The notes under the pieces were generated by a model. That model did no database searches. It worked only from the letters and a program-made list of their open reading frames with translations, and was not told the origin of the DNA. DNA of 25,935 nt from a virus. Lineage: Duplodnaviria; Heunggongvirae; Uroviricota; Caudoviricetes. Positions within the stretch are counted from its first letter, which is position 1, and every line of letters begins with the position of its first letter. The stretch lies in the IMG/VR virus record IMGVR_UViG_2636415858_000002, positions 1 to 25,935 of that record, one strand, 5' to 3'. Positions 3,901 through 18,006 of the stretch are shown one piece after another. The position numbers and the translations under genes are program-made.

Positions 3901-4320
3901 CTCTTTCAAATGTCCATGTGAAGTGGTCAACAAAAACTGGCCACCGAGTTAGAGTTTTTCCAGTATCGATTTTCCGATTCGTTTGGGGGTAACCCACCGT
4001 TATATTCGTGCGGTCTTAGTGCGCTGTAATATCCAACGATATAGTCCGTTATGGCGTGAGCTGCCTCGCTGGGTAATGCTGCCAACTTACTGATTTAGTG
4101 TATGATGGTGATTTTAAGGTGCTTGCGTGGCTTCCATTTCCATCAGATGTCCTTCCTGCTCCGCTACTGAAGGCGTGGTGCGTAACGGCAAAAGCACTGC
4201 CGGACATCAGCGCTATCTCTGCTCTCATTGCCGTAAAACATGGCAACTACAGTTCACTTACACTGCCTCTCAGCCCGGTACGCACCAGAAAATCATTGAT
4301 ATGGCCATGAATGGCGTCGG

Positions 4321-5872
<1,552 letters not shown>

Positions 5873-7490: not shown

Positions 7491-7577
7491 TCCATTTATT
7501 GGATTAATTCAATATTCTCGCTGTAGAGGTATAGTGAGGTGTACTGGCAATAGCGGACACTACCATTTGTTCTTTTT

Positions 7578-8396
7578 TTAAGCAGCCATCTGATGATATT
7601 TTTCCCTGAAGGCTGCCGGGGAGATATTCCCCAGACGAGAGTGACGACGCTGACGATTGTAGAAAATCTCAATGTATTCCCGTATTACTGAGATGGCTTC
7701 ATCCCGGTTATTAAAACGATAGTGGCTCAGGCTCTCATTTTTCAGCGTTCCCCAGAAGCTTTCCATCGGAGCGTTGTCGTAACAGTGACCTTTACGCGAC
7801 ATTGATGTTTTCAGACCAGACTGCTCCTGTATGACCCGGTAATCGTATGCGCAGTACTGTGAACCTCGATCAGAGTGGTGGATTAGCCCGGCAGGTGGGC
7901 GCTGGCTCCTGAGCGCCATAAACAGGGCTTTACCTGTCAGCTCTTTTGTCATGCGCTCTCCCATGGCGTAGCCGACAATTTCGCACGTATAAACATCTTT
8001 GATGCCAGCGAGGTACAACCATCCCTCCTGTGTGGCAACATACGTCAGGTCCGCCACCCAGACCTGATTTGGTGCTGTAGGAGCGAACGTCTGGTTCAGC
8101 AGATTTGGCGCAACTGGCAGATTGTGGTTCGGGTTCGTAGTCGCTCTGAACTTGCGTTTCTGCTTACAGCGTAGCCTTAGCTCCTTACGAAGACGTGCCA
8201 GTCGGTCACGACCAACGATGATGCCATTCTCTGCCAGCTCCGTCTGGAGCCGCCGGGTTCCATATGTTTCGCGAGTGCGGATATGTGCCACCTTAATCTC
8301 CAGTTTTAGCCGCTCATCACTTTGTTTTCTGTCTGAGGGTTCATGCTGTACCCAGTTGTAATAACCGCTCCTGGATACACCAAATACCTGACACAT
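7578..8396 (-). CDS. IS600 OrfB
   Basis: 272-aa DDE transposase frame. Confidence 0.9.
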   Translation of the reverse strand: MCQVFGVSRSGYYNWVQHEPSDRKQSDERLKLEIKVAHIRTRETYGTRRLQTELAENGIIVGRDRLARLRKELRLRCKQKRKFRATTNPNHNLPVAPNLLNQTFAPTAPNQVWVADLTYVATQEGWLYLAGIKDVYTCEIVGYAMGERMTKELTGKALFMALRSQRPPAGLIHHSDRGSQYCAYDYRVIQEQSGLKTSMSRKGHCYDNAPMESFWGTLKNESLSHYRFNNRDEAISVIREYIEIFYNRQRRHSRLGNISPAAFREKYHQMAA

Positions 8397-8431
8397 CGCT
8401 TCAATGGGAAATTGTTGTCGCCATTGTTCGA

Positions 8432-8734
8432 TTAACGCGTATTTTTCAGCGACTCCTGTGCAAAATACGCTGTTGCTTTTTTTAATATATCTCGCTCAAG
8501 GCGAGCTTCATTTAACGCCTTACGCAGTTGCAGAATTTCAGATTCCAGTTCAGCCACCGTGCGGGAACCAGGAGTACCGAGCCCTTTTCTGGCGGCGGTA
8601 ACCCATTGTCCTAAAGTGCCTTCAGGAAGGGATAATCGGGAAGCGCCTTCACTGATCGAAAGTTGATTTTCAAGAACCGTTCTGACAGCTTCGGCTTTGA
8701 ACTCTTTAGAGTAACGTTGGTTTTTTCTGCTCAT
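8432..8734 (-). CDS. IS600 OrfA (100 aa)
   Basis: MSRKNQRYSKEFKAEAVRTVLENQLSISEGASRLSLPEGTLGQW...KKATAYFAQESLKNTR. Confidence 0.9.
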   Translation of the reverse strand: MSRKNQRYSKEFKAEAVRTVLENQLSISEGASRLSLPEGTLGQWVTAARKGLGTPGSRTVAELESEILQLRKALNEARLERDILKKATAYFAQESLKNTR

Positions 8735-8857
8735 TATTAGCTCCTTCTGATGCCATTCTATTTCAGGAAGGAGTGTCCGTTAAACTCAGGCTACCTCAGC
8801 CTGAGGGCAGGTGTAAAACAATAATCAAGCATGGGGTTCATATCCATAGCTCCATTT

Positions 8858-9403
8858 TTATTTTAAGGAAAGCAACTGCTCTACGGTCATGTTTTTAATT
8901 GCGCCCCGGTTTACAAGAGTCCAGCCCTGTTTTTCCAGATAAAACCGGAAAGTCTCCAGGGTACAGACCAGTGCGCCATCAGGAACGGTTTCGGTGAATT
9001 CGACATTGCCGAATTTGTCGAAGTGAACAACCAGAGTGCGACCATCACCCGGAATCATCTTGTCAGCAGGTGGGGTGTTATTCTGGCGCAGTTCGGCCTC
9101 CATGCGGTCGAACTCAGCAATGTAGGCTTCCTTGAATGTGGCGGCTTTTTTGCCCGTGAAGCCCATCACCAGGAAAACGAAGCCGTTTTTGGTGATTTGG
9201 TAGGCGTTATAAGAATTGCCGCGGTGTTCGAATTTAACCCGCGAAAAGTTGCTGGTTAAAAATAGTTCAGAACATTCGAAGGATTCTATTTTTTGAACAA
9301 CATGGTGATGCTGCTTGCCAAAAAACTCAGCAATCGAAATAGAAGTAGTGACGGCGCGACCATTTTCGATGGTTACGTCAGGGTGAGAAAGGGTAGTAGC
9401 CAT
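8858..9403 (-). CDS. rha: Rha-family phage regulatory protein
   Basis: Start MATTLSHPDVTIENGRAVTTSISIAEFFGKQHHHVVQKIESF... with GAGGA RBS; the longer track ORF (to 9697) is an in-frame non-coding extension. Confidence 0.7.
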   Translation of the reverse strand: MATTLSHPDVTIENGRAVTTSISIAEFFGKQHHHVVQKIESFECSELFLTSNFSRVKFEHRGNSYNAYQITKNGFVFLVMGFTGKKAATFKEAYIAEFDRMEAELRQNNTPPADKMIPGDGRTLVVHFDKFGNVEFTETVPDGALVCTLETFRFYLEKQGWTLVNRGAIKNMTVEQLLSLK

Positions 9404-9567
9404 AATGACATCCTCAAGTGATAAGTTAATTAACTCACCAGCAGAGGTGCTAATCTCATGGGTGGTGAGACGCACAGGGTTAGCACTACCGGTCACTCGA
9501 GAACCCGGCCAGCCTTGCGGCTGCCCCGCACGCCTCACCATAATTTGAATGTGGCTGTGCATTACGC

Positions 9568-9592
9568 ATAAAAAAACCGCTTCAGCGCGGTT
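9568..9592 (-). terminator. intrinsic terminator candidate (stem aaccgc/gcggtt, loop 6 nt, 7 U on minus strand)
   Basis: Plus strand ataaaaaaaccgcttcagcgcggtt. Confidence 0.45.
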
Positions 9593-9719
9593 ATGCGCTC
9601 GAGTAACTTTCGGGGTGCTAATCCCGGCACCCGTTTTATGAGGTGCAGGTGCACTATAATTCCACCCGTTCTGGTTTTCAATAGCTACATTCAACATTTT
9701 CTCTTTCCTTTCATCACCG

Positions 9720-9874
9720 AAGTGAATTTTGTGATGCGGTGCCTAGTGCCTCCAGGTGACGTTAACCAGTTAACAATTACAGTCGGCTTTCCCACCCAAA
9801 CCAATAAGGACTAACATGACTTTTAACTGTGCCGCGTGCGCTTAGCCGCATTCACCGCATCACAAAATTCACTT
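9720..9874. repeat. 22-bp perfect inverted repeats (aagtgaattttgtgatgcggtg / caccgcatcacaaaattcactt) flanking a 111-bp core
   Basis: Read directly: left arm 9720..9741, right arm 9853..9874; core contains near-palindrome gttaaccagttaac. Confidence 0.7.
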
Positions 9875-10141
9875 TAAAAAGGGCGGACATCAGCCAGCAA
9901 TTAAACCGATGCCGCCAACTGGTACTTCACACAGCAATGTCGTTATTTACAACCGGAAGCGCACTCCCACCATTTAAATTTCACAGACAAGACCGACTCT
10001 TTATGAATACCGGAAATGCGCCTTCGTGTTGTGCCCGGTTTTATTTCACCACCTCCGGGCTTTGGTGGCCTCGGCTATGAGGTAGCCTGAGTTTAACGGA
10101 CACTCCTTCCTGAAATAGAATGGCATCAGAAGGAGCTAATA

Positions 10142-10444
10142 ATGAGCAGAAAAAACCAACGTTACTCTAAAGAGTTCAAAGCCGAAGCTGTCAGAACGGT
10201 TCTTGAAAATCAACTTTCGATCAGTGAAGGCGCTTCCCGATTATCCCTTCCTGAAGGCACTTTAGGACAATGGGTTACCGCCGCCAGAAAAGGGCTCGGT
10301 ACTCCTGGTTCCCGCACGGTGGCTGAACTGGAATCTGAAATTCTGCAACTGCGTAAGGCGTTAAATGAAGCTCGCCTTGAGCGAGATATATTAAAAAAAG
10401 CAACAGCGTATTTTGCACAGGAGTCGCTGAAAAATACGCGTTAA
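10142..10444 (+). CDS. IS600 OrfA (100 aa)
   Basis: Identical protein to 8432..8734. Confidence 0.9.
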   Translation: MSRKNQRYSKEFKAEAVRTVLENQLSISEGASRLSLPEGTLGQWVTAARKGLGTPGSRTVAELESEILQLRKALNEARLERDILKKATAYFAQESLKNTR

Positions 10445-10479
10445 TCGAACAATGGCGACAACAATTTCCCATTGAAGCG

Positions 10480-11298
10480 ATGTGTCAGGTATTTGGTGTA
10501 TCCAGGAGCGGTTATTACAACTGGGTACAGCATGAACCCTCAGACAGAAAACAAAGTGATGAGCGGCTAAAACTGGAGATTAAGGTGGCACATATCCGCA
10601 CTCGCGAAACATATGGAACCCGGCGGCTCCAGACGGAGCTGGCAGAGAATGGCATCATCGTTGGTCGTGACCGACTGGCACGTCTTCGTAAGGAGCTAAG
10701 GCTACGCTGTAAGCAGAAACGCAAGTTCAGAGCGACTACGAACCCGAACCACAATCTGCCAGTTGCGCCAAATCTGCTGAACCAGACGTTCGCTCCTACA
10801 GCACCAAATCAGGTCTGGGTGGCGGACCTGACGTATGTTGCCACACAGGAGGGATGGTTGTACCTCGCTGGCATCAAAGATGTTTATACGTGCGAAATTG
10901 TCGGCTACGCCATGGGAGAGCGCATGACAAAAGAGCTGACAGGTAAAGCCCTGTTTATGGCGCTCAGGAGCCAGCGCCCACCTGCCGGGCTAATCCACCA
11001 CTCTGATCGAGGTTCACAGTACTGCGCATACGATTACCGGGTCATACAGGAGCAGTCTGGTCTGAAAACATCAATGTCGCGTAAAGGTCACTGTTACGAC
11101 AACGCTCCGATGGAAAGCTTCTGGGGAACGCTGAAAAATGAGAGCCTGAGCCACTATCGTTTTAATAACCGGGATGAAGCCATCTCAGTAATACGGGAAT
11201 ACATTGAGATTTTCTACAATCGTCAGCGTCGTCACTCTCGTCTGGGGAATATCTCCCCGGCAGCCTTCAGGGAAAAATATCATCAGATGGCTGCTTAA
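10480..11298 (+). CDS. IS600 OrfB
   Basis: Identical protein to 7578..8396; frame is -1 relative to orfA across the A7 run at 10393..10399. Confidence 0.9.
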   Translation: MCQVFGVSRSGYYNWVQHEPSDRKQSDERLKLEIKVAHIRTRETYGTRRLQTELAENGIIVGRDRLARLRKELRLRCKQKRKFRATTNPNHNLPVAPNLLNQTFAPTAPNQVWVADLTYVATQEGWLYLAGIKDVYTCEIVGYAMGERMTKELTGKALFMALRSQRPPAGLIHHSDRGSQYCAYDYRVIQEQSGLKTSMSRKGHCYDNAPMESFWGTLKNESLSHYRFNNRDEAISVIREYIEIFYNRQRRHSRLGNISPAAFREKYHQMAA

Positions 11299-11343
11299 AA
11301 AAAGAACAAATGGTAGTGTCCGCTATTGCCAGTACACCTCATG

Positions 11344-11720
11344 ATGGACTGTGTGCAGTTTGTTCCCGATCCGAAAAAACGCAGCATCCGGAGACCGCTT
11401 GTTGAAGAGGATATTGAAGAAATCATTACCCGTCTTAATCTGCGTGCGGAGGTCTTTAAGCTGCATGTGGATTTTTTCGCTACCGTCGTCAGCTAGATAT
11501 CCCCCCGCGTTATCTCGACCCCGACAGACCGTTCGGGGTGGTGGATTACGTTAATGTTCCCCGTACCATTGCGACCGTTATCTCCTCCGGTAAGGCTTCA
11601 AAAGCTGAACTGGATTCTGTCCTTGGTGTGCAGGACTTATGGGATCTGCTGGAAATAATTCATGTGGATGCCCATAACGAACAGGTGATACAGGAGAACA
11701 GAAATGGCGCAGGTACTTGA
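11344..11720 (+). pseudogene. tail assembly chaperone G/GT-type 3' fragment with -1 frameshift site; 5' part removed by IS600
   Basis: Upstream frame ends VDFFATVVS* at 11496; slippery heptamer T TTT TTC at 11472..11478; -1 frame stays open to 11720, overlapping the tape-measure start. Confidence 0.5.
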
Positions 11721-13725
11721 TGAGCTTGTTCTGTCCCTCGGGATTGATGACAGGGACTTTACTGCCGGGGAACAGGCAGTACATGCTGCCCTTAACCGGC
11801 TCACGACGGTGATGGAAGGTGTCGCTGACACATTCAGTCAGGGACAGAAGAAAACCAGTGAATCACTGGAAAAAACCGGAAAAGATGCTGATAAAACGGC
11901 CCGTCGAATGGAAGATGCCGGGAAACGGGCGTCCCGTTTTTTTTCAGGGATCCGTAGCGAGATTCTGGCTCTTGCGGGTGTCAGTCTGACGCTGGGGGGG
12001 CTGAAGAACCTGGTAACAGGTTTTGCCCGTGATCTGAACCGTCTGTCCGTGGAATCCGATGCTTTTGGCATGAAGGCCAGAAATCTGGACGGATGGTTAC
12101 GGGCTGCGCGGGCAAATAATGTTGATGAAGGGGAAATGTCTGGGGCATTTTCCCGGCTTGCAAATGCAAAAGCGGCCTTCAGAGCCGGAAGGTCCTTTGA
12201 TCCTGTGTTACAGGATTTGTTTCAGGTTGCAGCCAGGGCGGGCATTAGTGTTGATTTAAATACTGACAGCACTGAAGCCATCATGCGCAAGCTGGCGGTT
12301 ATTTTTCCGCGACTGACAAAGTCCGAACAAACTGCCTACGGCAACGCGCTGGGCTTCAGTTATGCCGGACAGCAGTTTCTTGGCTCCGGTCATGCGCTGA
12401 AAGATGTGGACGAATTTACTTCCCGTTCGCAGGTTACGCCGGGGCGTACAGCGCTGGCCCGTAAGCTACGAAAAGAGCTTGTTGAGCTCGATCAGACCTG
12501 GTCCGGCATCGGGATGACGATTAGCACCGCGTTGATGCCGTACGCGCTGAAGCTCAGCCACTGGCTGGAGACACTCGGTGACTGGATGCAGCAACATCCG
12601 GAGGAAGTGAACAGGTTTATCACCACATTTCTGAATGACGTTGAGTCAGTGGCCTCCCTGGCGAATAAGGCTGCCGGAGAACTGGGGGGCTGGCAGAATG
12701 TCATTATTACGCTGATCGGGCTGAAAGTGGCGTCATGGGTGCGGGGGCTGACAAAAGCCCTCAGTGGCCCCGGAGGCCTTCTTTTTGCGATAACGGCGCT
12801 TTACCCGGTTGTTGACGGATTACTGACATCCATTGTTGGCAGGGAAAATAAGGACTGGCTGGATTCACATGGTTTTTTCTGGGCTTCAGACGGGACTTTC
12901 TTTTTCAATAAGAAAGAGATGGAGACGTATCAGACAAAACTGGATGTCGGAGAAAAGCCTGGCAACATCACCCGGGCACAATCACCCACAGTATGGCAGC
13001 AGGGCATGCTGGATACTCAGGCTTCTCAGGCAACCGGGAGGGAAGCAGCCTTCGGTGAATCCTGGCTACAGGGTATGCGTGCGACGCAGGAAAAACTCGG
13101 TAATGCCATGCAAAACCGCCAGCGACCGACGAAGACCGGGGAAGCCCTGTTAGGCTGGCTGCAACCGAAACTGTCTCAACTGGAGGAAAAATATAACCTG
13201 CCGCCCGGACTGCTGCGCAGCGTTGCGATCACCGAATCCCGTGGTAATCAGTTTGCCGTCTCACCTGCTGGTGCGATGGGACTGTTTCAGTTCATGCCGA
13301 AGACGGCCAGTGAATTTGGTCTGAGGGGGAACGATGCCTTTGATCCCGAAAAAGCCGCTGATGCCGCCGCGAGAAAACTTGGTGGCCTGATACGTTTTTT
13401 TCATGGCGATCTGGCTAAGGCTCTGGCGGCATATAACTGGGGAGAGGGAAATGTTCAGCGTAAGGGACTGGCTGCTGCTCCGGAGGAGACCCGCAACTAT
13501 ATTCCGCGGGTGCTGGCGAACCTGCCTTATCCGGGTGCGGCAATGGCCATACGGTCGCTCCATCCTGCGCCTGTATCGCAGTCCACCGTAACGGAAACCA
13601 CGCATATCGGGACACTGAATGTCACCACAACGTCGGACAATGTGAAGGGTATTACCGATGACGCACGTCGGCGTATCACGAATTCGGCGCTTGTGTCGGT
13701 TTATTCCAGCGGGGTAACAGGATGA
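11704..13725 (+). CDS. tail tape-measure-like protein with C-terminal lytic transglycosylase (SLT) domain
   Basis: 673 aa; AGGAGA RBS; SLT motifs ITESRGNQFAVSPAGAMGLFQFMP and AAYNWGEGN; position directly after chaperone frameshift site. Confidence 0.7.
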   Translation: MAQVLDELVLSLGIDDRDFTAGEQAVHAALNRLTTVMEGVADTFSQGQKKTSESLEKTGKDADKTARRMEDAGKRASRFFSGIRSEILALAGVSLTLGGLKNLVTGFARDLNRLSVESDAFGMKARNLDGWLRAARANNVDEGEMSGAFSRLANAKAAFRAGRSFDPVLQDLFQVAARAGISVDLNTDSTEAIMRKLAVIFPRLTKSEQTAYGNALGFSYAGQQFLGSGHALKDVDEFTSRSQVTPGRTALARKLRKELVELDQTWSGIGMTISTALMPYALKLSHWLETLGDWMQQHPEEVNRFITTFLNDVESVASLANKAAGELGGWQNVIITLIGLKVASWVRGLTKALSGPGGLLFAITALYPVVDGLLTSIVGRENKDWLDSHGFFWASDGTFFFNKKEMETYQTKLDVGEKPGNITRAQSPTVWQQGMLDTQASQATGREAAFGESWLQGMRATQEKLGNAMQNRQRPTKTGEALLGWLQPKLSQLEEKYNLPPGLLRSVAITESRGNQFAVSPAGAMGLFQFMPKTASEFGLRGNDAFDPEKAADAAARKLGGLIRFFHGDLAKALAAYNWGEGNVQRKGLAAAPEETRNYIPRVLANLPYPGAAMAIRSLHPAPVSQSTVTETTHIGTLNVTTTSDNVKGITDDARRRITNSALVSVYSSGVTG

Positions 13726-14432
13726 GTTTTTCTTTCGATAATATTTCCCTGAATAACTTTTCGCTCAGTGAAAGTAACGTACTGAGTGCAGTTCGTGGCG
13801 GCGGTGTCCTGGGACTCATTAATAGTGTACTGGCACCGTCATTCGGTATTTATTACGCACGGAATGATCCGGCAGGTGCCCATCAGAAGGGTGGCAAACC
13901 TTTCTCCCCGGATTCTTTTGTTGTCGTTGAGGTGGGCGCGGAGGCTTCTGTTTCCACCGTCCCCGTGGAGCAGGGGGCTTATACCACCTTTAATAAAATC
14001 CAGAGATCGCCGGAACTGCATGTGACTTTCATTGTAGAGGGGTGGACGGCCTTTTCCGGATCCGTCCCGAACCTGACAAATTTTTCCACCACCTCGCGGA
14101 CGAATGTGCTGGAAACGCTTGAAAGGATGCGTACCACGGCAGGACTCTACGATATTGAGACGCCGGACAAGACATGGACATCCTGCGACCTTGTGAAATA
14201 TGACTACCGAATGCGAAGTAATAATGGTCCGACCTTACTGACGGTTACTGCGGTATTTCAGACCGTAATGAATACAGGAGAGGTGTCAGTGGGAAGTACG
14301 GATAAGTCGTCTCCCACGGACAACGATAAAGCAAAAGGGGCCGCATCGGTTAAAACGCAGCCAGTTACGGCGTCGGTGACACAACCGTCAGACGCTGACA
14401 GACGAAGTGCCACGAACAGGGGGATCACCTGA
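13722..14432 (+). CDS. phage tail protein, function unassigned
   Basis: 236-aa ORF; ATGA overlap with the tape-measure stop; no family recognised. Confidence 0.5.
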
Positions 14433-14734
14433 TGCTGGAAATTGTTTTATCTCCCGTTAAAGCCCAGCAGTTTACGGTGACACTGGGCGCTCAGGTCTGC
14501 ACCATTCGCCTGAATCAGCGTACTACGGGGATGTATATCGATATCATTGTTAATGGTGAACCGTGCCTGTATGGCGTGCTGTGTCTGAATAATAACCGGA
14601 TTGTCCGGTACGGATACCTGCCGTTTCAGGGGGACCTGTTTTTTACCGACACGGAGGGGAATAGTGACCCTGACTGGCGGGGGCTCGGATCCCGGTACCG
14701 GCTCTACTGGCTGTTACCTGAGGAACTGATATGA
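14432..14734 (+). CDS. phage tail protein, function unassigned
   Basis: 100-aa ORF; TGATG overlap with the upstream gene; no family recognised. Confidence 0.45.
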
Positions 14735-14841
14735 GCTACAGACAACGTAAAATAAGTAAGCGTAAACTGACCGCCGTATGTAGCCATTAAGCCTGTATTG
14801 GTAACGTAGGTGCCCACCTTTTCAACTAGTGGACACCTGTT

Positions 14842-15261
14842 ATGGAACAGAAAGCATTATCTGCAGAACCCCGCAGATCATTTTCAAATGAGTTTAAACT
14901 TCAAATGGTTAAACTGGCTTCACAACCAGGAGCCTCTGTTGCCCGTATTGCCCGGGAACACGATATCAATGATAACCTGCTGTTCAAATGGCTCAGGCTC
15001 TGGCAGAACGAAGGGCGCATATCGCGGCGTCTTCCGGTAACAACCTCTTCTGACACTGGCGTTGAATTATTACCTGTGGAGATAACGCCGGATGAGCCGA
15101 AAGAACCTGTGGCTGCTCTTACTTCGTCTTTATCTACTCAGACTACAGTTAGTGCCAGCTCCTGCAAGGTGGAGTTCCGTCACGGTAACATGACGCTGGA
15201 AAATCCTTCACCAGAGCTGCTCACAGTGTTGATCCGTGAACTGACCGGGAGGGGACGATGA
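14842..15261 (+). CDS. IS66-family Orf1 (HTH accessory protein)
   Basis: 139-aa ORF, first of the three-gene IS66 arrangement. Confidence 0.7.
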   Translation: MEQKALSAEPRRSFSNEFKLQMVKLASQPGASVARIAREHDINDNLLFKWLRLWQNEGRISRRLPVTTSSDTGVELLPVEITPDEPKEPVAALTSSLSTQTTVSASSCKVEFRHGNMTLENPSPELLTVLIRELTGRGR

Positions 15262-15608
15262 TCTCACTCCCGTCAGGCACCCGCATCTGGCTCGTTGCTG
15301 GGATAACCGATATGCGTAAGTCTTTCAACGGGCTGGGTGAACAGGTACAGCATGTGCTGAATGATAATCCCTTCTCCGGTCACCTGTTCATCTTCCGTGG
15401 CCGACGGGGTGACATGATTAAAATCCTGTGGGCTGATGCTGATGGTCTGTGCCTGTTCACCAGACGCCTGGAGGAAGGCCAGTTTATCTGGCCTGCTGTG
15501 CGTGACGGCAAGGTATCCATTACCCGCTCGCAACTGGCAATGCTCCTCGATAAGCTGGACTGGCGTCAGCCAAAAACATCCCGCCTTAATGCACTGACAA
15601 TGTTGTAA
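15258..15608 (+). CDS. IS66-family Orf2 (TnpB-type accessory protein)
   Basis: 116-aa ORF MISLPSGTRIWLVAGITDMRKSFNGL... Confidence 0.75.
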   Translation: MISLPSGTRIWLVAGITDMRKSFNGLGEQVQHVLNDNPFSGHLFIFRGRRGDMIKILWADADGLCLFTRRLEEGQFIWPAVRDGKVSITRSQLAMLLDKLDWRQPKTSRLNALTML

Positions 15609-15638
15609 AAATGTCATGGCCGGATTATAAAAACGGCC

Positions 15639-17231
15639 ATGAATCAAAAATACCTCATTCGCATTGCAGAACTGGAATGCCAGCTCCGTCAGAAAGACCA
15701 GCAACTGAGTCTGGTTGAAGAGACGGAGGCCTTCCTGCGCTCTGCACTGGCCCGCGCCGAAGAAAAGATCGAAGAAGATGAACGGGAAATAGAACATCTG
15801 CGGGCTCAGATAGAAAAACTGCGCCGGATGCTGTTCGGTACCCGTTCTGAAAAACTGCGTCGTGAAGTTGAACAGGCTGAGGCCCTGCTGAAACAACGCG
15901 AACAGGACAGTGATCGTTACAGTGGGCGGGAAGACGATCCGCAGGTTCCCCGCCAGTTGCGACAGTCTCGTCATCGTCGCCCGTTACCGGAGCATCTGCC
16001 CCGCGAAATAAATCGCCTGGAGCCAGAAGAAAGCTGTTGCCCGGAGTGTGGCGGTGAGCTGGATTATCTGGGGGAAGTCAGCGCAGAACAACTGGAACTG
16101 GTGAGCAGCGCTCTGAAAGTGATCCGCACAGAACGGGTAAAAAAAGCCTGTACAAAATGTGACTGCATCGTTGAAGCACCGGCACCATCCCGTCCGATAG
16201 AGCGTGGTATCGCGGGCCCGGGGTTACTTGCCCGCGTGTTAACGGGAAAATACTGCGAACACCTGCCACTGTATCGTCAGAGTGAAATTTTTGCCCGTCA
16301 GGGTGTCGAACTGAGCCGTGCATTACTCTCCAACTTGGTTGACGCGTGCTGCCAGTTAATGACGCCGCTGAATGATGCTCTGTACCGTTATGTAATGAAC
16401 AGCCGCAAAGTTCACACTGATGACACACCAGTAAAAGTGCTGGCACCGGGCAGGAAGAAGGCGAAAACAGGATATATCTGGACGTATGTCCGGGATGACA
16501 GGAATGCCGGTTCGCCAGAGCCTCCGGCGGTCTGGTTCGCCTACTCACCGGACCATCAGGGTAAACATCCGGAGCAGCACCTTAGTCCCTTCCGGGGTAT
16601 CCTGCAGGCAGATGCGTTTAATGGTTACGATCGGCTGTTCAGTGCCGAACGAGAAGGCGGCGCGTTGACGGAAGCAGGATGCTGGGCTCATGCGCGGCGC
16701 AAAGTCCACGATGTATATATCAGTACCAAAAGCGCGACAGCGGAAGAAGCCCTGAAACTAATCGGTGAGCTGTACGCCATCGAGCACGAAATACGCGGGT
16801 TGCCGGTGTCTGAACGCCTGGCGGTCAGGCAAATGCAGAGTAAACCGCTACTGACTTCCCTGTATAAGCTGATGCAGGAGAAAGAACACACGTTATCGAA
16901 AAAATGCCGTCTGAGAGATGCGTTCCGGTATATCAGGAAGCACTGGGTTGCGTTGTGCAACTTCAGTGATGATGGTCTGGCTGAGGCGGATAATAATGCC
17001 GCGGAAAGAGCGCTTCGTGCAGTCTGTCTCGGAAAGAAAAACTTTATGTTCTTCGGCAGCGATCACGGTGGAGAGCGTGGTGCGCTACTGTACGGGCTGA
17101 TCGGCACCTGCCGACTGAACGGTATCGATCCGGAAGCGTATCTGCGCTATATCCTGAGCGTACTGCCGGAATGGCCTTCCAACCGTGTTGACGAACTCCT
17201 GCCATGGAACGTAGCACTCACCAATAAATAA
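15639..17231 (+). CDS. IS66-family transposase (Orf3)
   Basis: 530-aa ORF with N-terminal coiled coil, CPECGG zinc-finger-like motif and DDE-type core. Confidence 0.8.
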
Positions 17232-17262
17232 GCGTCAATACGGTGCTCCGTTGACGCTTACC

Positions 17263-18006
17263 CATGATACTGATGTAGTCACGCTTTATCGTTTTCACGA
17301 AGCTCTCTGCTATTCCGTTACTCTCCGGACTCCGCACCGCCGTGTTCTTCGGTTCAAGTCCCAACATCCGGGCGAACTGGCGTGCTTCATTAGCCCGGTA
17401 GCATGAACCATTATCCGTCAGCCACTCCACTGGAGACGACGGAAGATCGTTGCCGAAGCGGCGTTCCACCGCTCCCAGCATGACGTCCTGTACTGTTTCA
17501 CTGTTGAAGCCGCCGGTAGTCACCGCCCAGTGCAGTGCCTCACGATCACAGCAGTCCAGCGCGAACGTGACACGCAGTCTCTCTCCGTTATCACAGCAGA
17601 ACTCGAACCCGTCAGAGCACCATCGCTGATTGCTTTCTTTCACGGCCACTCTGCCTGTATGTGCCCGTTTCGATGGCGGTACAGCAGGTTTTCGCTCAAG
17701 CAACAGCGCATTCTGGCGCATGATCCGGTAAACACGTTTGGCATTGATCGCAGGCATACCATCAAGTTCTGCCTGTCTGCGAAGCAGCGCCCATACCCGA
17801 CGATAACCATACGTGGGCAGCTCTCCGATAACATGGTGTATACGGAGAAGCACATCCGTATCATCAGTGTGACGACTGCGGCGGCCATCCATCCAGTCAT
17901 CGGTTCGTCTGAGAATGACGTGCAACTGCGCACGCGACACCCGGAGACAACGGCTGACTAAGCTTACTCCCCATCCCCGGGCAATAAGGGCGCGTGCGCT
18001 ATCCAC
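17263..18006 (-). pseudogene. insD: IS2 OrfB transposase, C-terminally truncated
   Basis: Matches InsD up to ...KRDYISIM, then reads into the IS66-family element end. Confidence 0.8.

Follow-up and report, generated by a model that had tools for sequence, protein, structure and literature searches.

A conserved -1 frameshift site in a tail assembly chaperone gene pair, probably left as a fossil beside IS600 in a degraded contractile-tail prophage

Introduction

Frameshifting of the G/GT type is widely conserved in long-tailed phages (PMC5009743). These systems need a skewed ratio of the short to the long product; both products bind the tape-measure protein, and the extension of the long form recruits the tube subunit (PMC5009743). 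The P2-type frameshift is 2- to 3-fold more efficient than that of lambda (PMC5009743). U_UU.Y is the second most shift-prone class of tetramer in E. coli (PMC4066793). In the TAC-N/TAC-NC system of Pakpunavirus and Andersonviridae, the short chaperone gene carries a conserved GTTTTT motif at its 3' end, the ORF that follows is routinely listed as a "hypothetical protein", and the -1 frame is open in all alleles (PMC12846349).

In this study, we analyzed a 25,935-nt stretch of caudoviricete DNA (IMG/VR record IMGVR_UViG_2636415858_000002, positions 1 to 25,935; hereafter the window). Positions 11341-11720 of the window very likely represent the 3' end of a chaperone gene pair with a -1 frameshift, which is now a fossil, from a degraded contractile-tail prophage. 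An earlier note on the same DNA had described a frameshift site of a chaperone pair next to an IS600 element. Here, we compare the locus with intact relatives in E. coli, with close alleles in viral contigs, and with distant phages.

Results

Chaperone remnant and slippery heptamer

The 0 frame that opens at ATG 11344, next to the right end of IS600 copy 3, reads MDCVQFVPDPKKRSIRRPLVEEDIEEIITRLNLRAEVFKLHVDFFATVVS and closes at a TAG stop at 11494-11496 (translation). It belongs to the 3' remnant of a tail assembly chaperone gene, the analogue of G (11341..11496, + strand), which consists of codons 84-134 of 134 and the TAG. The remnant is 99.7-100% identical to positions 9000-9155 of the E. 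coli FDAARGOS_943 locus, where the intact gene occupies 8751-9155. Its ribosome-binding site and promoter context are lost together with codons 1-83 (249-250 nt), and the IS600/chaperone junction can be placed with an uncertainty of one base.

The slippery heptamer T TTT TTC (11472..11478, + strand) has the form X XXY YYZ and spans the codons GAT|TTT|TTC, with the end of the stop codon 18 nt downstream. The last upstream stop in the -1 frame is at 11457-11459, and this frame is open from 11460 to a TGA at 11718-11720, where its end overlaps ATG 11704 of a 673-aa ORF by 17 nt. The -1 frame extension, the analogue of T (11478..11720, + strand), has 80 codons plus the TGA, as defined by translation and a match to phrog_3976. 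After the slip it begins with RYRRQLDIPPRY and ends with NRNGAGT; the 80 residues that a slip on the heptamer would add are RYRRQLDIPPRYLDPDRPFGVVDYVNVPRTIATVISSGKASKAELDSVLGVQDLWDLLEIIHVDAHNEQVIQENRNGAGT. The extension has no conserved start codon of its own, and the separate hypothetical protein that RefSeq calls here, from GTG 11538 to 11720, includes just the last 60 codons. All coordinates given in the earlier note hold, both for the fragment directly after IS600 copy 3 with its stop at 11496 and for the heptamer in its X XXY YYZ register. The note had also read the -1 frame as open to 11720 and overlapping the start of the 673-aa gene, and a recount found no early stop in it.

A six-frame scan of the window detected 13 in-register XXXYYYZ heptamers located at most 60 nt from the end of an open stretch and followed by at least 70 open -1 codons. 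These bare-pattern sites include the genuine sites of IS600 (A AAA AAA) and IS1 (A AAA AAC) and also artefacts in non-coding frames. With 13 such sites, rarity of the bare pattern in the window was dropped as a line of evidence. The case against chance therefore rests on the comparative evidence, which is strong.

Intact locus in E. coli

The 419 nt downstream of IS600 are present in 9 of 5426 complete E. coli genomes with 99.5-100% identity. In E. coli FDAARGOS_943 (NZ_CP065615, 858650-859278) and RMDEC465, the chaperone region is surrounded by a complete tail module. This module encodes a sheath protein of 494 aa (DUF3383, Pfam E 2e-140), a tube protein of 148 aa (Pfam E217_Gp32, E 1.8e-17), the chaperone of 134 aa, which lies between the tube gene and the 673-aa gene, a -1 ORF of 60 aa, and the 673-aa protein, with baseplate genes next. 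RefSeq names both the chaperone and the -1 ORF product "hypothetical protein" and the 673-aa product "lytic transglycosylase domain-containing protein", and its PGAP annotation lists WP_000101350 and WP_000228829 as two separate proteins at this locus. The C-terminal end of the 134-aa chaperone is ...KLHVDFFATVVS. The chaperone pair is thus placed between the tube and tape-measure genes at the intact locus, and the window keeps the downstream half of this order only.

The 673-aa gene of the window (11704..13725, + strand) encodes a tape-measure-like tail protein with a C-terminal lytic transglycosylase (SLT) domain, as assigned by Pfam and PHROG. Residues 493-598 match the Pfam SLT family (E 8.8e-26). 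Its PHROG matches are phrog_2013 (E 2.6e-245), labelled "lytic tail protein", and phrog_2276 (E 1.7e-29, residues 1-607), labelled "tail length tape measure protein". The genes that follow encode a Dit-like protein and then a Pam3 gp18 baseplate-plug protein. These matches are in line with the tape-measure assignment made in the earlier note.

A shorter match was found in E. coli RMDEC332 (NZ_CM177021.1, 2274049-2274355), which aligns with query positions 113-419 only (window 11454-11760). This suggests an independent, different truncation of the same chaperone gene.

Family assignment and predicted fold

The naming of the two frames as a chaperone pair in the earlier note agrees with the PHROG database. 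The full-length chaperone homologue belongs to phrog_1932, labelled "tail assembly chaperone" (E 3e-59), a label that is an annotation and not an experiment, and the -1 extension belongs to phrog_3976 (E 5e-32), a family with no assigned function. In Pfam, no chaperone family was matched at E<=1, and in NCBIfam, no chaperone model was matched at E<=0.1. Because neither database offers a chaperone model for it, PGAP annotates no programmed frameshift here.

A conceptual fusion of the two frames aligns over the junction with phrog_18181 (E 5e-8) and weakly with phrog_4774 (E 0.019). These two families give weak, indirect hints of fused homologues. The best 120 of 345 protein homologues are all about 134 aa in length, and no natural single-frame fusion of the G and T parts was found among them.

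An AlphaFold2 model of the Salmonella homologue (88% identical) had a pLDDT of 73 and a pTM of 0.62, and the other four models reached at most 53. A fold search of the PDB with this moderate-confidence chaperone model gave no match to a solved structure (best E 0.66), and a search of the PDB with chaperone sequence profiles found nothing. In BFVD, the chaperone model matches predicted myovirus proteins named tail assembly chaperone (E 8e-7, TM 0.70), so that the structural matches bearing this name are predicted viral structures only. The model also matched the predicted structure of Acinetobacter AB1 gp01 (E 1.9e-6). A note in the Orisa03 record links this protein to the Orisa03 chaperone, which is one of the tblastn homologues. 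No fold link to characterized chaperones is established by these searches, and membership as a chaperone rests on synteny, the recoding architecture and the PHROG label.

Conservation among close alleles

We compared 80 loci from IMG/VR viral contigs with 59-100% identity, which represent 45 distinct allele combinations. In 43 of the 45 distinct alleles, the distance from T TTT TTY to the end of the 0-frame stop codon is exactly 18 nt, and an extension of at least 67 aa follows. The two exceptions have a premature stop in the chaperone gene and a -1 extension of just 25 aa, respectively. The site is a run of six T residues, with seven in one allele.

Wobble positions were compared over 35 different segments of 150 nt. 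GAT and TTT keep their third base in every segment, and TTC shows a single C-to-T change at this position, while the wobble positions of the 19 upstream codons vary in 17-63% of the segments. Past the 0-frame stop, it is the second codon position of the old frame, equivalent to the wobble position in the -1 frame, that carries the variation. The -1 codon periodicity sets in directly after this stop, 40 nt upstream of GTG 11538. As far as sequence comparison can tell, the pattern is the signature of a selected recoding site, with a -1 frame that appears to be translated without an initiation of its own.

Conservation in distant phages

A megablast search of a phage collection with positions 11342-13725 gave no match. 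At the protein level, tblastn with the chaperone retrieved 116 phage records, all with less than 60% identity, and ten of these were chosen down the ranking for comparison of the site. In seven of the ten (35-59% identity), the same alignment position is occupied by an in-register heptamer, which is accompanied by a -1 ORF of 73-86 aa. Their heptamers sit at an H-V/L-D/G-F-F/L motif, and the 0-frame stop ends 18-57 nt further on. The heptamer is T TTT TTC in Pantoea PA-1 (ORF069-070, -1 extension of 76 aa) and T TTT TTA in Pseudomonas Orisa03 (73 aa), Edwardsiella GF-2 (77 aa), Acinetobacter AP22 (86 aa) and Acinetobacter phiAC-1 (86 aa). Burkholderia phiE058 (75 aa) and Aeromonas phage 51 (79 aa) have G GGT TTT. 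Klebsiella phage RCIP0114 has no X XXY YYZ heptamer; a U_UU.U tetramer (GCT TTT GTA) occupies the homologous position, at about 1945-1960 of its locus, with a homologous -1 ORF, and it may be a minimal slippery site. In two Ralstonia phages, which are the most distant matches, the frameshift arrangement is absent and the layout is different.

The -1 extensions of nine phage lineages align with a mean column identity of 44% and share the motifs N-V-P-x-T-I-A and L-L-E-I. A joined (frameshifted) CDS is annotated in none of the ten phage records. The small downstream ORF has different starts in different records, and in three records no such ORF is called, which argues against independent initiation. 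In Burkholderia phiE058, a gene for an HNH homing endonuclease at 2114-2605 of the locus separates the end of the chaperone -1 frame from the tape-measure gene; the two normally overlap.

Across these comparisons, the conserved elements are the register and the U_UU.Y A-site tetramer, usually extended to X XXU UUY, and the length of the T run is not conserved. This pattern fits a putative slippage of tRNA-Phe on the ribosome, either in tandem or in the A site.

Search for stimulatory elements

The earlier note had named a downstream stimulatory structure as a point to check, and none that is significant was found at this site. The RNA 3' of the window heptamer folds no better than its shuffles (z of +0.35, -0.71 and -0.78 over 129, 52 and 82 nt, respectively, the latter two being -0.7 to -0.8 when rounded), and the single hairpin downstream of the heptamer begins about 28 nt away. 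The relatives have no common stimulatory structure, with z values of -0.3 to -2.7 in differing places. A downstream structure was accordingly rejected as a feature of the site on the basis of the shuffle z-scores and the inconsistency among relatives. Low-level, unstimulated slippage is typical of G/GT-type sites. A Shine-Dalgarno-like GGAGG at 11448-11452 ends 19 nt before the heptamer, which is outside the 6-17 nt window of PMC4066793.

IS600 junction and decay of the tail module

IS600 copy 3 (IS3 family, 1264 bp, 10078..11341, + strand) abuts the chaperone remnant with its right end. It contains orfA (10142-10444, + strand), orfB (10480-11298, + strand) and its own A AAA AAA -1 site (10393-10399, + strand), which leads into a -1 extension of 299 codons. 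Self-BLAST gave identities of 100% and 99.9% between this copy and the two further full copies. Its ends are TGAGGT... and ...ACCTCA, and its product matches "IS3-like element IS600 family transposase" in RefSeq and transpos_IS3 in NCBIfam (E 3e-99). A 3-bp target-site duplication is absent at copy 3, where the flanks are CTA and TGA. When the inversion between copies 2 and 3 is undone, the chaperone-side flanks become GGC and TGA, and there is still no duplication. The lack of a target duplication at the chaperone junction points to a deletion or rearrangement and not to a simple insertion.

The window retains positions 9000-12414 of the tail-module block of FDAARGOS_943 and, further downstream, the fibre pieces 15801-16655 and 17078-17864. 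The window has none of the sheath, tube and head genes and lacks chaperone codons 1-83. The earlier note had attributed the loss of the 5' part of the chaperone gene to IS600. This part is indeed gone, but the loss also includes the sheath, tube and head genes, and a deletion or rearrangement is indicated. An IS66-family element occupies the place of the genes for the baseplate hub, spike, sheath initiator and gp47/J, which correspond to the missing positions 12415-15800 of the FDAARGOS_943 locus. The element (14842-17231, + strand) encodes a tnpA-like protein of 139 aa, a TnpB_IS66 protein of 116 aa and a DDE_Tnp_IS66 protein of 530 aa. No promoter-like site was found near the remnant (11200-11800).

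At least six assemblies or read sets that are independent of one another, among them CP026731, CP182558 and CP011511, contain the identical IS600/chaperone junction; they were located by an exact look-up of the tape-measure protein. The junction was found in none of the 5426 complete E. coli genomes, and an exact search of one-genome-per-species contigs gave 0 matches.

A large part of the window consists of IS elements. IS600 copies 2 (7535-8798, - strand) and 3 (10078-11341, + strand) bracket, as inverted repeats, a 1279-bp segment (8799-10077) that carries a Rha/Ash-family gene (8858-9697) and is found in either orientation, depending on the assembly. The left flanks of copy 2 (TAG) and copy 3 (CTA) are reverse complements, which fits an IS600-mediated inversion. 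IS600 copy 4 (20934-22196, - strand) has a clean 3-bp target duplication (CAA/CAA) and is flanked by a tail-fibre assembly gene (20121-20666) and by a 598-aa ORF (22148-23944) that carries a partial phage_tail_N domain; it has the look of a simple insertion at or close to a tail-fibre gene. A partial fourth copy of IS600 (1770-2998, 1229 bp) and two inverted copies of IS1 (714-1482 and 4071-4839, 99.7% identical) are also present, with the A AAA AAC site of IS1 at 4378. At the end of the window, a gene for an IpaH-type E3 ligase effector (24124-25935, - strand; LRR_TTSS E 4e-15, NEL E 2.5e-75) runs off the edge. This gene marks the island as a Shigella/EIEC-type ipaH prophage island.

Discussion

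In this study, we described a truncated chaperone gene pair with a -1 frameshift site that is conserved, along with its -1 frame, in relatives of the locus. The anatomy of the pair, its homology to intact loci and its truncation are seen directly in the DNA and its alignments. We propose the following scheme for an intact phage. Most ribosomes translating the 134-aa chaperone would terminate at the TAG. A minority would slip back one base on T TTT TTC, with both tRNA-Phe re-pairing in the -1 frame, and would read 80 more codons, so that the fused product has a length of about 208 aa. If the two products act as in lambda G/GT and P2 E/E+E', both would coat the tape-measure protein, and the extension would recruit the tube protein so that the tail polymerizes to the correct length. 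We infer that slippage occurs and is ribosomal, and its efficiency and the part played by each product are likewise proposals. In the window, an IS600-associated deletion would have taken the translation start with the first 83 codons and every tail and head gene upstream, and part of the baseplate module would have been lost to the IS66-family element. As the start, the N-terminal domain and the partner genes are all gone, the frameshift site here, although it looks intact, would be a functionless fossil in a pseudogene remnant.

The scheme has to be weighed against other explanations of the locus. The 134-aa protein and a protein of about 60 aa starting at GTG 11538 might be products of two independent genes, the T run being simply the codons of a conserved Asp-Phe-Phe. 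RefSeq PGAP and several phage records do call a separate small ORF, and a D-F-F / x-F-L motif is kept at the protein level. However, conservation of the -1 frame, including an RRxLDIPP motif, starts right after the 0-frame stop and thus upstream of the GTG, which has no Shine-Dalgarno-like sequence upstream. The annotated starts of the small ORF vary by phage, and three records are without it. Amino-acid constraint does not explain why GAT and TTT are invariably used over GAC and TTC in 35 sequences. Furthermore, lineages with altered residues (HLGF and HLEGF) have switched to another canonical heptamer, G GGT TTT. We therefore regard two independent genes as very improbable. Transcriptional slippage, in which RNA polymerase would add a U on the T6 run and the ribosome would not slip, would give the same protein outcome and is a recognized route of recoding in bacteria and phages (PMC5009743). 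The run is homopolymeric, and one allele has T7. A run of T6 is, in turn, shorter than those that usually give appreciable polymerase slippage. What is kept among relatives is the register and the X XXY YYZ / U_UU.Y form and not the run length: G GGT TTT (T4 to T5) is found in the Burkholderia and Aeromonas relatives, and just GCT TTT G in the Klebsiella phage. The variable run length argues against slippage by RNA polymerase, and we consider this explanation unlikely.

The remnant itself might also be expressed. Read-through from IS600, with initiation at ATG 11341/11344 or TTG 11326, could yield small frameshifting G'/G'T peptides with a retained or new (co-opted) function. In-frame ATGs are found at the junction, and an ORF at 11326-11496 starts within the IS600 end. 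Several assemblies share the junction, and the fragment does not differ from intact E. coli copies (100% identity); such identity is, however, expected after a recent deletion, and selection is unnecessary to explain it. The region 11200-11800 has no promoter-like site, the conserved N-terminal 83 residues are lost together with 7 of 11 invariant positions, and the genes for the tube, sheath and baseplate hub partners are missing. A functional remnant thus seems exceedingly improbable, and a fossil of a frameshifted chaperone pair remains the reading that we adopt.

It is likely that the whole phrog_1932/phrog_3976 clade uses a conserved -1 frameshift centred on U_UU.Y, publicly annotated as two hypothetical proteins, in a chaperone whose fold is perhaps unlike the solved ones. 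The clade extends over prophages of Escherichia/Shigella, Salmonella, Serratia, Photorhabdus, Enterobacter and Pantoea and over AP22-like, Popoffvirus and GF-2 lytic or temperate myoviruses. What is listed upstream of the tape-measure gene as a "60-aa hypothetical protein" most likely forms the C-terminal domain of a chaperone made by frameshifting, and its annotation should be corrected accordingly; gene callers and PGAP miss this in a widespread tail module. The frameshift pair also supports naming the 673-aa SLT protein a tape-measure protein. For the history of the island, the data indicate that an IS600-associated deletion, an IS600-mediated inversion and replacement by an IS66-family element disabled the tail module of an ipaH-carrying prophage. 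The type of feature is ordinary and well understood, and it raises no new question on recoding or tail assembly.

Comparison with known systems

The arrangement resembles lambda G/GT in several respects. In both, two overlapping ORFs lie immediately upstream of the tape-measure gene, the heptamer is a few codons before the first stop, and the -1 extension of about 80 aa lacks a start of its own and runs as far as the beginning of the tape-measure gene. In both, a strong stimulatory structure is unnecessary (PMC5009743). In contrast, there is no detectable sequence similarity (no match in Pfam), and the predicted structure of N15 GT was matched only at E 0.24. The lambda heptamer is G GGA AAG and that of the present locus is T TTT TTC; lambda has a siphovirus tail, whereas the tail here is contractile and sheathed.

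P2 E/E+E' also belongs to a contractile-tail phage and has its chaperone pair between the tube and tape-measure genes. Its slippery run is reportedly T-rich as well. With its DUF3383 sheath and E217 gp32-like tube, the tail encoded here is contractile, and a pair of the P2 E/E+E' type is therefore its closest analogue, ahead of lambda G/GT. The G/GT-type arrangement upstream of the tape-measure gene, as described in the earlier note, is conserved in distant phages and stands in this sense, but its nearest counterpart is that of P2. No sequence relationship to P2 was found, and the tail module here is of the DUF3383-sheath / E217 gp32-tube / Pam3 gp18-plug type and does not resemble that of P2. 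The Pakpunavirus and Andersonviridae case presents the same situation and the same style of argument as ours but concerns a different phage family.

The true homologues are found in the myoviruses of about 43-47 kb that carry phrog_1932 and phrog_3976, namely Acinetobacter AP22/Obolenskvirus, Aeromonas Popoffvirus, Edwardsiella GF-2, Pantoea PA-1, Pseudomonas Orisa03 and Burkholderia phiE058. Their chaperones are 35-59% identical, and they share the gene order, the frameshift position and the -1 extension. Their copies are intact in functional phages, whereas the copy in the window is truncated by IS600 in a decayed prophage. The phrog_1932 group is a distinct putative chaperone family of DUF3383-sheath myoviruses and enterobacterial prophages, with a conserved, unannotated predicted frameshift.
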